The notes under the pieces were generated by a model that was not told the DNA's origin, ran no database searches, and saw nothing but the letters and a program-made list of their open reading frames with translations. The translations under genes and the position numbers were made by a program. A stretch of DNA of 64,000 bases from an uncultured Candidatus Melainabacteria bacterium (GTDB lineage: Bacteria; Cyanobacteriota; Vampirovibrionia; Gastranaerophilales; Gastranaerophilaceae). Each line of letters begins with the position of its first letter. Within the stretch, counting starts at the first letter, position 1. The stretch spans positions 217,858 through 281,857 of the forward strand of contig CAKUZD010000002.1 in NCBI GenBank assembly GCA_934718275.1, in the 5' to 3' direction. Positions 1,582-62,660 of the stretch are shown in pieces.

Positions 1582-2697
1582 TTATATCGCATCAAATATT
1601 TCAAATACCGGTTGGATAAGTTGTTCGACCGGTATTTCTTCGTCTAATTCTAAGGTAATTGTTGGAATTTGTCTTTCTACGCCGGCATAAGTTCCGAAAC
1701 TTCCGGGGGTTGGGTACCCAATACTGGCTTCTACAGGGTAATTTATGATTTTTGATATTTGTTCTGCCCAATTCTTTGCAGGGCCATCATAATTAACAAC
1801 TTTGTACGGGGCGTGAAGTGTAAGTATTCTATTGGGCTTAAATTCATTAATAGTATCTATGAGAAACTGAGTCTCAATCTCGCTTCCGCCTGCTATACCG
1901 CCATAATATGCTGTTTGGGCGTTATCACAAGTGGCATTTTCTCCGCAATTTTTCCCCCAATTTTTTGTTGGAAAATTTCTATTTAAATCGACTCCGTTGG
2001 CATTTGTGCGTTGTTTCAATTGCATTCCGTCAGGGTTTAAGCAAGGGATGAATAGAAGATTGGTTGTCTTGAGTTTCCCCCTCCTCGGCATCATAGATGC
2101 CGGTCCTCCCTCAGGTGGAGGACATTCTATTTCTTTTTGGATTTTGTTGATAACTCCTTCAATACTTTGGTGTATTTCATTATTCCAAATTCGTATAACC
2201 TTATATCCGTTTTGTTTAAAAAACAAATCTCGAGTTTTATCTTTTTTTAAGTTTTCTTCTTCGTTATGTTGACCGCCGTCAATTTCAATAATAATTTTGG
2301 GTGCAAAACAAGCAAAATCTACAATATATTTATCAATTGGTTGTTGGCGTCTAAATTTAACACCTAATTGTTTTTGTTTTAGATATTGCCATAAAATAAT
2401 TTCTTCTTTTGTGGAGTTGTTGCGTAAGTTTTTACTAAGTTGTATCAGGCGCATTTTATTATAATGCATGTCCTCCACTTGCGGGAGGACCGAAATCTTT
2501 GATTTCGAGGTGGGGGAAATTGAGGAACATCTTTTTAAATATTCTTCAATTAAAAATTTTCCTTGCGGTTCGTCTCCATGGAATACTCCAATAATTAAAG
2601 CTGTGCTTGGTAAATATTGTGAATAATTTCCTATTAATTGAATTTCATTTCCCAATTTAGTTTTTGCTGTTTTTAATATTTTAAAATTGTTATTCAC
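1582..2697 (-). CDS. M14-family zinc carboxypeptidase (MpaA/murein-peptide amidase-like) carrying an in-frame DUF559 endonuclease-like insert
   Basis: M14 motifs: HGDEPQG (HxxE zinc motif), PCLNPDG, VDLNRNFP, LTLHAP. Residues ~58-210 match the DUF559 pattern LWQYLKQKQLGVKFRRQQPIDKYIVDFACFAPKIIIEIDGGQH...VIRIWNNEI. Confidence 0.75.
   Translation of the reverse strand: MNNNFKILKTAKTKLGNEIQLIGNYSQYLPSTALIIGVFHGDEPQGKFLIEEYLKRCSSISPTSKSKISVLPQVEDMHYNKMRLIQLSKNLRNNSTKEEIILWQYLKQKQLGVKFRRQQPIDKYIVDFACFAPKIIIEIDGGQHNEEENLKKDKTRDLFFKQNGYKVIRIWNNEIHQSIEGVINKIQKEIECPPPEGGPASMMPRRGKLKTTNLLFIPCLNPDGMQLKQRTNANGVDLNRNFPTKNWGKNCGENATCDNAQTAYYGGIAGGSEIETQFLIDTINEFKPNRILTLHAPYKVVNYDGPAKNWAEQISKIINYPVEASIGYPTPGSFGTYAGVERQIPTITLELDEEIPVEQLIQPVFEIFDAI
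2070..2522 (-). mobile_element. ~450-bp DUF559-encoding insertion with mirror-image double-hairpin termini (boundaries approximate)
   Basis: Hairpins at 2086-2102 (cggcatc/gatgccg) and 2103-2123 (gtcctcc/ggaggac) are mirrored by 2470-2490 (gtcctcc/ggaggac) and 2491-2507 (cgaaatc/gatttcg). C5/G5 runs lie outside both ends. Confidence 0.6.
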
Positions 2698-2710: not shown

Positions 2711-3625
2711 TTATTCAAACAATGCATCTATAAAATCTTTAGAATTGAAAGCTTTTAAATCTTCCATTTTTTCTCCAACTCCGACAAGTTTAACAGGTAA
2801 TTTCATCTCTTTGGCAACTGCCAAAACAATTGCACCTTTTGCAGAACCATCAAGTTTAGTAAGTGCAACAGATGTAACATCAACTGCTTCTGTAAAAACT
2901 TTTGCTTGTTGTAATCCATTTTGTCCGGTATTGGCGTCTAGTACAAGAATACATTCTCGTAAGGCTTCCGGAGCTTTTTTGCTTATTACTGATTTTATTT
3001 TTTTTAATTCTTCCATTAGGTTAAATTTATTTTGTAGCCTGCCTGCGGTATCAACTAAAATTACATCAAAATTTTCTTTTTTGGCTTTGTCTATTGCTTC
3101 AAATACAACTGATGCCGGATCAGCTTTATCTTTGCGGACAATTTCTGCCCCTGCTCTTTTAGACCAAATGTCGAGTTGTTCTTCTGCTGCAGCACGGAAT
3201 GTATCTCCGGCAGCAATTAACACTTTTTTTCCTTCTTGTTTAAATTTGTATGCAAGTTTTCCAATCAGTGTTGTTTTGCCTGCTCCATTTACTCCTGTTA
3301 TAAAGTAGATATTCAATTCATTTTCATTGTAGGCGAGGTTGGTATCTCCGGCACTATTTAGAACTTTTAAGAATTCTTGTTTTAGATATTCTTTGACGTC
3401 TGCCGGTTTAATTTTGTTTTGATTTCTTAACTTATCAACCAATTCAGTGGCGTAGTTAACGCCCAAATCTGCAGAAATAAGCATGTCTTCCATATCATCA
3501 AGAATGAAATCAGAAAATTCGTTTTCCTTTTCTACAGAATTAACAACGTTTCCAACAAGCACTTGTGCCGTGTTGGAAACAGTTTCTTTAAGATTATTAA
3601 ATTTGTCTTTAAAAAATCCAAACAT
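2711..3625 (-). CDS. ftsY: signal recognition particle receptor FtsY
   Basis: SRP GTPase motifs GVNGAGKTTLIGKLA, DTAGR and TKLDGSAKGG-like (TKLDGSAKGA). Confidence 0.9.
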   Translation of the reverse strand: MFGFFKDKFNNLKETVSNTAQVLVGNVVNSVEKENEFSDFILDDMEDMLISADLGVNYATELVDKLRNQNKIKPADVKEYLKQEFLKVLNSAGDTNLAYNENELNIYFITGVNGAGKTTLIGKLAYKFKQEGKKVLIAAGDTFRAAAEEQLDIWSKRAGAEIVRKDKADPASVVFEAIDKAKKENFDVILVDTAGRLQNKFNLMEELKKIKSVISKKAPEALRECILVLDANTGQNGLQQAKVFTEAVDVTSVALTKLDGSAKGAIVLAVAKEMKLPVKLVGVGEKMEDLKAFNSKDFIDALFE

Positions 3626-3709: not shown

Positions 3710-4369
3710 TTAATTAATACCGTAATCAACGATTACTTTAGCTAAAATGCCGTTAATAAATGAAGAACTGTCCTCGGTTGAATATTTTTTAGCAAGTTCT
3801 AACGCTTCATCAACAACAACTTTCATTGGAGCATCTTTAATGTATAAAAGTTCTACGATTGCAATACGTAAAATGTCTTTGTCCATTTTTACAAGGCGTC
3901 CTAAATCCCAATTTTTGGCATATTTTTGAATGATTTCATCAATTTCTTTGTGGTTCTTTTGAAAATAGTCTGCAATTTGAATTGCATAATTTTTTACATC
4001 ATGTTGTGAATCAAGGGTTGTAAATTCTGCGATTTCTAAAGCCAACATTGATTTTTCGGCAATATCAATCATTTCATTAATTCTGCCTGTCATATCTGAT
4101 GTCATAGGGATTGGAACCGGAATATTAGCTGCCCCGATTGGTCTTTTTAAATTTTCTTCTGCGTCTGCTTCATAGTTTTCGATTTGATTTCTCATTGAAA
4201 CTAATGCGCCAAGTGCAGTTTTTAGTTCGTCTGTTGCATTACTTGTTAAAATTCTAACAGATTTAAGAATAATATCTTGTAAATCTTCTCTTGAGTAGTT
4301 TGTAATTTTTTTATCAAATTGTGAAAATAATATAAATGCTAATTCTCTTGCTGCTCTACGGGCTTGCAT
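3710..4369 (-). CDS. nusB: transcription antitermination factor NusB (long form)
   Basis: N-terminus MQARRAARELAFILFSQ. C-terminus LRIAIVELLYIKDAPMKVVVDEALELAKKYSTEDSSSFINGILAKV matches NusB. At 219 aa it has a central extension. Confidence 0.8.
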   Translation of the reverse strand: MQARRAARELAFILFSQFDKKITNYSREDLQDIILKSVRILTSNATDELKTALGALVSMRNQIENYEADAEENLKRPIGAANIPVPIPMTSDMTGRINEMIDIAEKSMLALEIAEFTTLDSQHDVKNYAIQIADYFQKNHKEIDEIIQKYAKNWDLGRLVKMDKDILRIAIVELLYIKDAPMKVVVDEALELAKKYSTEDSSSFINGILAKVIVDYGIN

Positions 4370-59630: not shown

Positions 59631-60320
59631 AAAAGTGAGAAGTGAGAAGTGAGAAGTGAAAAGACCTTATCTATGGGCAATAAGGCTTTAAGGCGATAGG
59701 GCAATAAGATTTTACAGTCATTGTGAGCGAATGCGAAACAATAATGTCGTCATTCTGAGGGCTTTGCCCGAAAGAATCCAGCTGATTAATTTCAATATTG
59801 GCGGGGTAGGTACCACCGCCCTACAAGACTAAAATGAAAAATTAGTTATCGTCATTCTGAGCGGAGCGAAGAATCTCCTAAACATCTTACCAACCATGCG
59901 ATGTTTCGGCTTCGCCTCAACATGACAAAACTTTCAGGCAGATGAGGGGCTAATGCCACGATAGCGGAATGAGCAATAACTTGTTAGTGAAATTAACAAC
60001 AAAAACAGTCATTGTTTGAGCGAAGCGAGTTTGGCTGTTTTTATATTGAACTTACTAGTTATTAGTGAATGAAGCGTGTGGATGGTTTTGTGGAACTTTT
60101 TTCACAAAAAGTTCCCGCTGTCCGCGAAGGACAACTATTTAAGGTGAGAGAATATAATTGATAGACTCTGAATCAAGTCAAGCCCCTCTCTCGTATGCGT
60201 AATTCGCGTTGCTCAAACGCCTACTCTCTCTCCCCTAAAGGGCGAGAGCACAATAATCATGGCCATTCTGAGCGGAGTGAAGAAATGGACTTCTTACTTT
60301 TCACCATTCATTTTTTACTT
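59631..60320. repeat. mosaic of short hairpin repeat modules (R2)
   Basis: Heptads at 59635-59663, 9-mer units, cattgtgagcgaatgcgaaacaatg-type hairpins, and the ~250-bp module at 59886-60133. See findings. Confidence 0.85.
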
Positions 60321-60611: not shown

Positions 60612-61274
60612 ATGCAACATACGGTTAGAGAGAATCTTTTACAAATACAGGAAGATATCGCACCTTATAAACCAAATATTATCGCAGTTACAAAATACTT
60701 TGATGATAAAGCTATTATTGAAGCTTACAATGCAGGGTTAAGGGATTTTGCCGAGTCGAGAGCGCTTGAAGCTGTTGAGAAAGTTGAAAGTTTACCGACA
60801 GATGTGAGAAATAATTCAAGATTTCATTTTATCGGACACCTTCAAACAAACAAAGTAAAGAAAGTTGTTCCGGTTTTTGACTTTATTCATTCGGTTGACT
60901 CTCTGAAGTTAGCAAAATCTATATCCGAAGAAGCAAGAGTGATTGGTAAGGTTCAAAATATTTTTGTTCAGGTGAATAATGCAAATGAAGAACAAAAGTT
61001 TGGACTTTCTCAAGAAGAAGTATTTGAAGTTTTTCCTCTGATAAAAAAACTTCCTTCAATAAATATTGTTGGAATTATGAACATGGCGCCGTTAGGAGCT
61101 TCTGAGGAAGAATTGAATAAACTTTTTGCCGGTGTTTTTGAAATAAAAACGAATTTGGAACGAAAGTTTGATTGTGAGTTGAGAGAATTGTCCATGGGGA
61201 TGAGTCAGGACTATAAAATTGCGGTTAAGCACGGTGCAACTATGTTGAGAATTGGTAGAAAACTATTTATATAA
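60612..61274 (+). CDS. yggS: YggS-family pyridoxal-phosphate homeostasis protein
   Basis: IIAVTKYF (PLP lysine), HFIGHLQTNK, LSMGMSQDY. Confidence 0.9.
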   Translation: MQHTVRENLLQIQEDIAPYKPNIIAVTKYFDDKAIIEAYNAGLRDFAESRALEAVEKVESLPTDVRNNSRFHFIGHLQTNKVKKVVPVFDFIHSVDSLKLAKSISEEARVIGKVQNIFVQVNNANEEQKFGLSQEEVFEVFPLIKKLPSINIVGIMNMAPLGASEEELNKLFAGVFEIKTNLERKFDCELRELSMGMSQDYKIAVKHGATMLRIGRKLFI

Positions 61275-61297: not shown

Positions 61298-61801
61298 GTG
61301 GCAGTAGTTACAGACAAAATTAAATCAGTAGTAGATTTTTTAGTAAAAGGATTTGAACCAAGAGAAACTATTTTTGATGAAATGGCTCAAGAAGCAGAAG
61401 AAGATTATCCTGTACAAGATAATTTAGCAATTGATCCGGCATATTCTTATCAACCGGTTGTAGAAAAACCAAGTGAATTAAAAGTAGTAAGCCATCCTAG
61501 TATTAATAAAGGTTATGAAGTTAAGGTTATGGAACCAAGGTCGTTTGAAGATGCTGCAACTATCGTTCAACATTTAAGAAATAGAAAAACTATCGTTTTA
61601 AACCTTCATTTGTTAGATAAAGAACAATCTCAAAGAACAATTGACTTTGTTTGTGGGGCAGCTCATGCTTTGGATGGCAAACCTCAAAAAGTTGGTGATT
61701 TAGTATTTGTATTTACTCCAAGCAACGTTACTTTGTCTGTTGACGTTACTGCGAACCAAAATAAATTTAATGACTCATTGTGGAGAGCTCCTTTACAGTA
61801 A
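61298..61801 (+). CDS. sepF: cell division protein SepF
   Basis: GTG start after GGAGG RBS. VMEPRSFEDAATIVQHLRNRKTIVLNLHLLDKEQSQRTIDFVCGAAHALDG. Confidence 0.9.
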   Translation: MAVVTDKIKSVVDFLVKGFEPRETIFDEMAQEAEEDYPVQDNLAIDPAYSYQPVVEKPSELKVVSHPSINKGYEVKVMEPRSFEDAATIVQHLRNRKTIVLNLHLLDKEQSQRTIDFVCGAAHALDGKPQKVGDLVFVFTPSNVTLSVDVTANQNKFNDSLWRAPLQ

Positions 61802-61901: not shown

Positions 61902-62660
61902 GGGGGGGGGAAGGAAGGTTATGTCATGTTGAGGTGAAGTCGAAACATCGCATGGATGGAAAGATATTCAGTAGATTCTTCGCTCTGCTCAGAATGACGA
62001 TAACTAATTTTTCATTTTAGTCTTGTAGGGCGGTGGCACTGCCCCGCCAATATTGAAATTAATCAGCTGGATTCTTTCGGGCAAAGCCCTCAGAATGACA
62101 TCATTATTGTTTCGCATTCGCTCACAATGACTGTAACTATAATGTTCTCGCCCCTTGAGGGAGAGAAGAAATTTCTTAGCGAATAATTTGAGCTTAGAAA
62201 TTTCAGAGAGGGGGTTGTGGTAATAACCTTCTTATTTCCTTATAATTGGTTGTCCTTCGCGGACAGCGGGAACTTTTTGTGAAAAAAGTTCCACAAAACC
62301 ATCCACACGCTTCATTCACTAATAACTGGTAAGTTCAATAAGAAAACGGTCAAACTCGCTTCGCTCAAACAATGACTGTTTTTGTCGTTAATTTCACTAA
62401 CAAGTTATTGCTCATTCCGCTATCGTGGCATTAGCCCCTCATCTGCCTGAAAGTTTTGTCATGTTGAAGCGAAGCAGAAACATCGCATGGTTGGAGAATT
62501 TAAGACCTCACCCTACCATGCTTGGTTGTTCGCGTTTAACGGGTCTATACAGTCTTGCACTTTTGCAAGCCTGTTCGCCCTCAGTTCACAATCCGCCTCA
62601 GAATGACTTTTCTGTAATCACTTATTGCCTGGTGTCTTAACGTCTTATTGCTTTAACAGT
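61902..62660. repeat. mosaic of short hairpin repeat modules (R3), starts with a G10 tract
   Basis: G10 at 61902-61911. Contains the modules of R2 in inverted orientation and shuffled order, including the ~250-bp module at 62251-62497. Confidence 0.85.

Follow-up and report, generated by a model that had tools for sequence, protein, structure and literature searches.

The 64-kb window analyzed here (the whole stretch of DNA presented above, 64,000 nucleotides from a gut Melainabacterium of the order Gastranaerophilales) carries an M14 peptidase gene that is interrupted in frame by a segment encoding a DUF559 nuclease domain, bounded by inverted, structured termini. This segment is probably a resident copy of a family of selfish elements, in which a DUF559 nuclease gene lies within inverted, GC-rich, structured modules of approximately 48 nt, in the manner of repetitive extragenic palindromes (REP) and their RAYT enzymes, and which is tolerated by the host as a protein insertion. 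Fixed sites are full in some sister genomes and empty or reduced to a solo module in others, the M14 site has been taken by different DUF559 lineages in turn, and the nuclease can be made only within the peptidase, of which it forms an internal domain. We infer from the comparison of related loci that the element is mobile.

The host open reading frame (ORF) encodes 371 amino acids including the insert and is open from end to end; locus L001 of the comparative set is 99% identical to the window sequence. Peptidase_M14 of Pfam was matched by residues 209 to 303 (E = 1.9e-14, 54.4 bits against a gathering cutoff of 21.6), and once the insert was spliced out, the best PDB matches of the host were the MpaA structures 5HXD (E = 1e-22) and 4AXV. 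With 106 bits, the host did not reach the NCBIfam MpaA equivalog cutoff of 157, and the peptidase is, judged by its sequence, MpaA-like rather than a certified MpaA equivalog. The metal-binding and catalytic motifs HGDE, NPDG, NRNF, and LHAP, together with the E of TLELD, are invariant across 22 orthologs. HGDE and NPDG are separated by 181 residues in the window ORF, compared with 27 to 30 residues in empty orthologs.

The segment that separates these motifs (positions 2065 to 2529) is 465 nt long, a multiple of three, and contains no stop codon in the host frame, compared with 7 and 18 in the other two frames. A repeat search revealed a single terminal inverted repeat of 59 nt, with arms that are 81% complementary. 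The arms have GC contents of 0.58 and 0.51, compared with 0.28 for the DUF559 core and 0.32 for the window. Two adjacent hairpins appear in the fold of each terminus, with z scores of −3.2 to −4.9 relative to shuffled sequences (Table 1). The pattern GTCCTCC-N7-GGAGGAC occurs twice in the window, where 0.02 occurrences are expected, and the outer stems differ between the two ends by compensated changes (CGAAATC/GATTTCG compared with CGGCATC/GATGCCG). At the 3' end of the element, GGAGGA and AGGAGG form a perfect mirror. An earlier note on this DNA had described the split M14 gene, the complete DUF559 signature, the four hairpins with C and G runs outside them, the mirror-image ends, the compensatory stem changes, the open frame of an insert whose length is about a multiple of three, and an internal ATG at 2469, and all of these were recovered. 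That ATG (2469-2467) is not conserved among orthologs. No further copy of the element's module was revealed in the 64-kb window by pattern, blastn, or tblastn searches.

Table 1. Features of the interrupted peptidase gene and of the inserted element (window coordinates)
Feature	Coordinates	Strand	Remarks
MpaA-like M14 peptidase (murein tripeptide amidase family), host gene	1582..2697	-	From ORF list, Pfam, and PDB matches
Whole element, bounded by terminal inverted repeat	2067..2526	.	Arms 2067-2125 and 2468-2526
5' outer block (C-run)	2508..2516	-	Coding strand CCCCCACCT; mirrors the inner pyrimidine arm with one mismatch
5' hairpin H1	2491..2507	-	CGAAATC-AAA-GATTTCG (coding strand); with H2 encodes ..SKSKIS..
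5' hairpin H2	2470..2490	-	GTCCTCC-CGCAAGT-GGAGGAC, pyrimidine/purine; encodes VLPQVED
DUF559 (Vsr-like PD-(D/E)XK) nuclease coding segment	2124..2469	-	Host residues 77-191; no stop codon of its own; Pfam match 2128-2451
3' hairpin H2'	2103..2123	-	GTCCTCC-ACCTGAG-GGAGGAC (coding strand); encodes CPPPEGG
3' hairpin H1'	2086..2102	-	CGGCATC-TAT-GATGCCG; two stem pairs differ from H1, both compensated
3' outer block (G-run)	2077..2085	-	Coding strand AGGAGGGGG; perfect mirror of the H2' purine arm GGAGGA

DUF559, to which Escherichia coli YcjD belongs, is a very large family whose members are putative nucleases with no assigned function. The window copy is a full-length, high-scoring member of this family (PF04480), with residues 83 to 190 covering positions 2 to 108 of the 109 in the profile (E = 1.7e-35, 121.6 bits against a cutoff of 20.6), and its segment matches the PDB entry 3HRL at an E value of 7e-22. 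It retains the D...ExD..QH residues of Pfam DUF559, YcjD, and 3HRL. Across 22 orthologs, D127, E138, Q143, and H144 are invariant and D140 is nearly so, and the D...E-x-D-G-G-Q-H columns are likewise invariant in 20 diverse DUF559 sequences. A profile search also matched the "mobile intron protein" I-Bth0305I (3R3P) at an E value of 6e-4 over approximately 60 residues, whereas a single sequence gave no match; this distant similarity to a homing endonuclease would fit a homing-type activity. Ordinary DUF559 members are free-standing ORFs of about 115 to 135 amino acids, and the window copy is unlike them in having no conserved start codon and no stop codon and in being made within another protein. 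When the insert by itself served as the protein query, nearly all matches were free-standing DUF559 proteins; the M14 fusions were missed, probably owing to the word index, and the search provided leads only (P0213 and P0178). Pfam recognized only DUF559-clan and M14-clan families in the window ORF and no recognized transposase family.

An AlphaFold2 model of the fusion presents two folded domains. The peptides encoded by the termini (residues 59 to 94 and 192 to 210) join the first helix after HGDE to the strand leading to NPDG and are probably flexible linkers, because their predicted local distance difference test (pLDDT) values are only about 30. The model thus agrees with the earlier suggestion that the segment is tolerated as a protein insertion, since it places the terminus peptides in low-confidence linkers between the two domains.

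Both domains are present in all of the best 120 protein matches, down to 59% identity, a pattern that by itself would speak for an old fusion. A different picture emerged at the DNA level, from 80 orthologous loci of species-representative genomes of Gastranaerophilales and Melainabacteria. DUF559 lies between HGDE and NPDG in 39 of the 80 loci, and the host frame is open in all 39; distant orthologs that bear the segment also carry hairpin termini. Many of the unoccupied loci are truly empty, with 27 to 30 residues between the motifs, and several contain a footprint. The footprint of L041 consists of one hairpin between outer runs, CCCCCCACC-TCGAAATC-ACA-GATTTCGA-GGTGGGGG, and decaying footprints are found in L053, L038, and L040, the last being a truncated remnant. 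At L055 to L057 and L062, other short sequences occupy the loop of the footprint hairpin. The empty sites that the earlier note proposed to seek in orthologous M14 genes therefore exist, and they exist in close relatives. Loci that share 97 to 98% host identity differ in being full (L003) or reduced to footprints (L040 and L041), and pairs with 98% (L018 and L062) and 94% (L002 and L038) host identity likewise differ in occupancy. When the spliced host was compared with 1.84 billion representative proteins, insert-free orthologs were recovered as well, among them P0240 (229 amino acids, 67% identity), which gave one continuous match.

The occupants of this loop are themselves diverse, with at least four kinds of termini. 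The window kind (type A) reads C-run, H1, H2, DUF559, H2', H1', G-run. The flipped kind reads H2, H1, G-run, DUF559, C-run, H1, H2. Type B has a single pyrimidine/purine hairpin and an outer run on each side of DUF559, and the fourth kind comprises hairpin loops with extra sequence and chimeras. Between L007 and L016, identity is 97% in the host parts and just 47% in DUF559, and in L016 the type-B element is nested within what remains of a type-A outer stem (CCCCCACCTCGA ... TCGAAGTGGGG). When all pairs of occupied loci are considered, the identity of the host is only weakly correlated with that of the insert (Spearman 0.16). The two 48-nt terminal modules of L043 are identical.

In a neighbor-joining tree, the grouping of DUF559 domains largely follows terminus type and not host gene. 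The type-B inserts make up one clade, a second holds every type-A insert but L031, and the flipped inserts of M14 genes group together with L126 and L194. Most flipped elements of PrmA genes, of intergenic DNA, and of one further locus constitute a neighboring clade, which also contains the type-A insert L031. Because the tree follows terminus type, the unit of inheritance is the nuclease together with its termini, and this unit has entered the M14 loop several times, as well as other sites. The earlier view of DUF559 as cargo is accurate insofar as the domain is carried by a REP-like unit, but this phylogeny makes it more likely that DUF559 is the element's own nuclease rather than a passive passenger.

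Further modules and short sequences were also observed in the peptidase genes. L037 contains three tandem 54-nt type-B 5' modules (3150-3320), translated in frame (APLPNPLPKGAREVSNES x3) upstream of its DUF559, and the peptidase gene of L017 carries, in frame and in another of its loops, a second module with the BoxC consensus (3733-3770, ...SPSPQPSPQGGEGK...). Other GC-rich sequences of about 40 to 60 nt, some with hairpins, lie in or beside the H1 or H2 loops of L055 to L057, L062, L018, and L008. This suggests that hairpin loops may be preferred sites of insertion or repair.

The nuclease and its termini are both under selection. In the closest type-A pairs, in which the synonymous divergence (dS) is 0.7 to 1.4, the ratio of nonsynonymous to synonymous divergence (dN/dS) of DUF559 is 0.08 to 0.14; for the host peptidase it is 0.06 to 0.10 in most of the same pairs and reaches 0.20. 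DUF559 is therefore under purifying selection about as strong as that on its host, over a dS of about 1, and is not decaying, which is contrary to the earlier idea of an insertion caught before decay. At the nucleotide level, H1 is 100% paired across 33 distinct type-A termini; at three of the seven pairs both bases have changed (A-T to G-C, A-T to C-G, and C-G to T-A), and no one-sided or broken pair occurs. H2 is 97% paired across the same termini, with two pairs doubly changed. The covariation score of the termini was reached by none of 500 shuffles, and the termini are under structural selection.

The terminal module is also a dispersed repeat. An exact-pattern scan of metagenome contigs (H1 followed by an H2 arm) retrieved at least 120 loci, about 100 of which contain neither DUF559 nor the peptidase; the further copies of the termini that the earlier note proposed to look for are thus found at about 100 other metagenomic loci at least. 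The module of approximately 48 nt reads CCCC(T/A)CC(T/C), CGAAATC-NNN-GATTTCG, (GT/AC)CCTCCC-N5-GGGAGG(AC/GT), usually followed by AT, and is found as a single unit in unrelated surroundings; some contigs carry several copies. Among the 76 modules with enough flanking sequence, 30 lie inside frames that are open for at least 40 codons on each side, about 17 of them outside the peptidase, compared with 63% of random windows; modules are thus biased toward intergenic DNA and nevertheless often coding. Genes confirmed by Pfam in which solo modules reside encode a MiaB-like protein (between its domains), FolP (before the pterin-binding domain), MurF, IspE, a PolyA_pol/CCA-type enzyme, and an RNase_T exonuclease. 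The module ends in ...GGAGGAC-AT in 59 of 88 distinct instances (L086 to L205), and in 20 of these the next base gives ATG; such an end could supply downstream sequence with a site resembling a ribosome-binding site and with a start codon.

Complete elements occur at sites other than the M14 loop. The PrmA gene of L161 houses a complete flipped DUF559 element in frame; the arrangement in L126 is different, and in L112 the corresponding position is occupied by no more than a solo module. A DUF559 element lies in frame in a different ORF in L108, where the flanking part has no Pfam match, and a free-standing DUF559 element stands between ksgA and ispE in L083 to L085. The earlier proposal of a mobile or REP-like unit is supported by these elements in other genes and in intergenic DNA, as it is by the empty sites and footprints in relatives and by the termini at other loci. 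Simple deletion between hairpins was considered as the origin of the reduced states; it accounts for the M14 footprints (C-run, H1, G-run) and fails for the solo module of PrmA (H2, H1, G-run) when this is set beside the full PrmA elements.

BoxC/PIT/TM_ECO repeats have been catalogued since the 1990s and are linked to genome instability. To our knowledge, neither a mechanism nor an associated gene has been assigned to them. The hairpin termini described in the earlier note are present, but they are not generic, and their internal symmetry points to this group of repeats. The seven bases of the outer C-run beside H1 mirror the pyrimidine arm of H2, with a mean of 6.19 matches out of 7 in 86 dispersed modules (41 of them perfect), compared with 2.9 to 4.1 in shifted registers. 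In 34 M14 termini the mirror is perfect in 20 cases and has one mismatch in 13. The variants of the module co-vary, ...CCT occurring with GTCC... and ...CCC with ACCC... (67 and 27 cases, compared with 4 discordant ones). BoxC/PIT/TM_ECO is known as an intrastrand-triplex motif from many bacteria, E. coli among them (Holder et al. 2015, PMC4666352), for which the published TM_ECO consensus is CCCTCNCCC-N3-6-GGGNGAGGG-N3-GGGNGAGGG (PMC4666352). Because block order and symmetry are the same, the window module is, as far as its sequence indicates, a variant of this mirror-repeat, triplex-capable motif. The TM_ECO consensus has no match in the window, and the 17-nt H1 that separates the outer block from H2 exceeds the short loops (1 to 6 nt) of BoxC. 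Type-B elements at the same peptidase site do match the consensus (L006, L025 to L027, L033, L035, and L037), and their matches stand on both sides of DUF559 in inverted orientation.

This association extends to other DUF559 genes. In E. coli K-12, a BoxC-like sequence lies at the stop codon of ycjD, the prototype of DUF559, and a match to the TM_ECO consensus follows about 170 nt downstream; this 47-mer occurs at a median of 19 places per E. coli genome. In this region (L206, NC_000913.3 1351039-1351420), a partial duplicate of the ycjD 3' end is followed by BoxC remnants and a full TM_ECO. In other E. coli phylogroups, the position of ycjD is occupied by the eefRABCD operon (PMC12817139). 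A scan of viral contigs for DUF559 gave 28 loci, 5 of which are close relatives; all 5, on high-GC contigs and found by protein alone, are bracketed by CCCTCTCC.../...GGAGAGGG hairpins. Some of the viral-contig hairpins have outer runs and TTA loops. Of the 29 DUF559 genes studied in addition to the M14 copies, 20, the 5 viral-contig relatives among them, have GC-rich pyrimidine/purine hairpins within 160 nt on both sides, where the background in these loci is 0.45 per kb; the inverted two-sided bracket is present at all 39 M14 copies. TM_ECO has been reported as always intergenic, functionless, and unlinked to known mobile elements in E. coli, in a paper that mentions neither ycjD nor any endonuclease (PMC4666352), and "DUF559 domain-containing protein" is among the gene families enriched for flanking inverted repeats (PMC9881135). 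In the literature on DUF559, COG2852, ycjD, and in-frame palindromic elements with an endonuclease, no paper was found that draws the link between DUF559 and BoxC. We propose, with somewhat less than even confidence, that DUF559 (YcjD-like) nucleases may be the missing enzyme partner of BoxC/PIT/TM_ECO, repeats present in hundreds of bacterial genomes. By recognizing and cutting the hairpin- or triplex-prone modules, these nucleases would bring about the origin, movement, and loss of the repeats, a role like that of RAYT toward REP, and in Melainabacteria they may have adopted a nonsplicing, "intein-less" lifestyle as an internal domain of housekeeping enzymes.

Several observations weigh against the reading of the segment as a selfish element. 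We know of no DUF559 protein for which nuclease activity has been demonstrated, and no transposition or homing event was seen directly. The target duplication that the earlier note had envisaged at the junctions was not found: no consistent target-site duplication emerged from occupied, footprint, and empty alleles or from spacers between ftsY and the M14 gene with and without a solo module. A second DUF559 is absent from the 64-kb window and from the 6-kb flanks of the 80 loci, and the copy number of DUF559 per genome appears to be low. Solo modules far outnumber DUF559 genes, so that another enzyme or a passive process could spread them. Within subclades, the dS of the insert is similar to that of the host, which implies a long and mostly vertical residence broken by loss and replacement, and the purifying selection on DUF559 could equally reflect a function at the level of the host. 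The neighbor-joining tree has no support values, and in it the type-A insert L031 groups with flip-type elements. At E. coli ycjD, the BoxC-like sequences stand on one side only, with nothing comparable upstream, and the count of associations is partly biased in that L086 to L205 were chosen for containing the module.

Some of these points would follow if the modules were independent REP- or BoxC-like repeats whose spread is due to another enzyme or to errors of replication and recombination at non-B DNA, with DUF559 being a cellular Vsr-like repair or defense nuclease that merely tends to be bracketed by them, for example because such structures are what it acts on or because modules insert near one another. 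The excess of solo modules, the mosaics that modules form, and their nesting in each other's loops are in line with such a scheme; strong purifying selection over long vertical residence would suit a cellular function, and BoxC/TM_ECO was found to be unlinked to known mobile elements in E. coli (PMC4666352). We nevertheless regard this explanation as unlikely, given that DUF559 clades track terminus type and move with their termini between unrelated host sites, and that unrelated DUF559 lineages swap at a single codon-level site. The inverted bracket at 39 of 39 M14 copies and 20 of 29 others stands against a background of 0.45 hairpins per kb, and a cellular gene would not be expected in the loops of a peptidase, of PrmA, and of another coding gene.

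Relatives with up to 98% host identity that lack the domain, or retain only a hairpin footprint, make it very improbable that the segment is an ancient, domesticated fusion in which DUF559 serves the MpaA-like enzyme and the flanks are plain linker-coding DNA. Such a fusion would account for the presence of the insert in all of the best 120 protein matches, for the frame being always open, and for a dN/dS as low as that of the host; it is difficult to reconcile with 47%-identical DUF559 lineages in 97%-identical hosts, with the same element in PrmA, another coding gene, and intergenic DNA, with linker pLDDT values of about 30, and with stem covariation at the nucleotide level, which linker coding does not require. 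Still less credible is an action of the hairpins in RNA, by which the segment would be removed or bypassed (as an intron or by a ribosomal hop) or an internal DUF559 cistron starting at ATG 2469 would be controlled. Stable local hairpins at both borders, GGAGGAC ahead of that ATG, and GC-rich elements within AT-rich coding sequence could be read in this way. An open host frame over about 150 extra codons in all 39 occupied orthologs would, however, be unnecessary if the segment were removed or bypassed, and on this ground ribosomal bypass and RNA excision were rejected; the other two frames of the window segment are closed by stop codons. Independent translation was rejected in view of the unconserved ATG, and the gap of only two bases between GGAGG and ATG is short for a ribosome-binding site. 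Rfam gave no match at E values up to 1 to an intron, ribozyme, or other known RNA, and Pfam detected no Hint domain, which sets aside an intein.

If the segment is a selfish element, as we favor, the DUF559 nuclease would recognize or cut the structured modules, or alleles that bear the module or are empty, and recombinational repair would then copy, exchange, or delete the element by homing-like conversion or hairpin-targeted insertion. The nuclease may also mobilize solo modules in trans, as RAYT does REP, in which case solo modules would be nonautonomous derivatives. Hairpins that are already present may serve as landing pads, and both the nesting and the repeated occupation of a single loop would then be accounted for. 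Landing in frame in a permissive surface loop would spare the host enzyme while borrowing its promoter and start codon.

Should this be correct, DUF559 and BoxC/PIT/TM_ECO would become one testable system, and their physical coupling across phyla points to a partnership of enzyme and repeat comparable to that of RAYT and REP. In-frame copies represent a third way for a nuclease gene to reside inside an essential gene and do it no harm, after self-splicing introns and inteins, one in which the nuclease is kept as a permanent domain joined by linkers that its own structured termini encode. This bears on protein-domain insertion, on annotation (such genes being labeled as odd fusions), and on the evolution of repeats in coding sequence.

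The surroundings of the peptidase gene contain further modules. The adjacent ORF (2711-3625) looks like ftsY, with signal recognition particle GTPase motifs, and the next (3710-4369) looks like nusB; in most related loci that were examined, the peptidase gene is likewise directly preceded by an ftsY-like ORF. In L019, L020, L023, L029, and L035, the spacer between ftsY and the M14 gene (at about 2950 to 3000 in each) is filled by a solo module (H2, H1, G-run) whose G-run adjoins the start codon of the peptidase. The corresponding spacer of the window has only 13 nt and no module, and that of L017 has a module of the BoxC type. Elsewhere in the window, two degenerate BoxC-like modules lie in inverted orientation about 1.9 kb apart (60186-60248 and 62145-62215), reading CCCCTCTCTC...CTCTCTCCC-CTAAA-GGGCGAGAG and TTCTCGCCC-CTTGA-GGGAGAGAA...AGAGAGGGGG. 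A yggS-like ORF (60612-61274) and a sepF-like ORF (61298-61801) stand between them, with no DUF559.

Among known systems, BoxC/PIT/TM_ECO shares with the present modules GC-rich Y-Y-R or Y-R-R blocks, mirror symmetry, and dispersal in many copies, often as inverted pairs, and it is tied to locus instability, as at this site. The window module differs in having the 17-nt H1 in place of the 3-nt loop of BoxC, and the modules described here are inserted in frame into coding genes and stand on either side of a nuclease gene. In REP/BIME sequences and their RAYTs (REPtrons and REPINs), the enzyme is an HUH Y1 transposase and the REPs are extragenic. The arrangement of an enzyme gene within an inverted pair of a dispersed short repeat, the mosaic clusters, and the large excess of solo units over the gene are common to both systems, whereas the enzyme of the present element is a PD-(D/E)XK DUF559 protein and its modules are frequently in frame inside genes; among the DUF559-clan and M14-clan families that Pfam found in the window ORF, there is no HUH Y1 (IS200/IS605-like) transposase. 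Terminal inverted repeats are also a property of miniature inverted-repeat transposable elements and insertion sequences, from which the segment differs in lacking a recognized transposase family.

Rickettsia palindromic elements (RPE), which are selfish DNA, are alike in behavior only, being palindromic repeats in frame in unrelated housekeeping genes that are translated as extra surface peptides while host function is kept. They belong to a different phylum and are presumably unrelated in sequence, and the present element has a nuclease domain of about 115 amino acids between two modules; we know of no enzyme gene associated with RPEs. Homing endonuclease genes and inteins resemble the element in placing a nuclease gene at a fixed position in a conserved enzyme gene, between catalytic motifs, and further in their patchy presence among close relatives, the swapping of divergent lineages, and the preservation of host function. 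A distant homology would also connect its catalytic domain to that of the Vsr-like I-Bth0305I. Unlike these genes, it has neither an intron nor an intein splicing domain, and its nuclease is retained when the protein matures. It also possesses two features that are absent from homing endonuclease genes, namely structured inverted termini and solo derivatives dispersed elsewhere, and related copies of the element occupy other sites too. By analogy, then, the feature appears to join traits of REP/RAYT systems, RPEs, and homing endonucleases.

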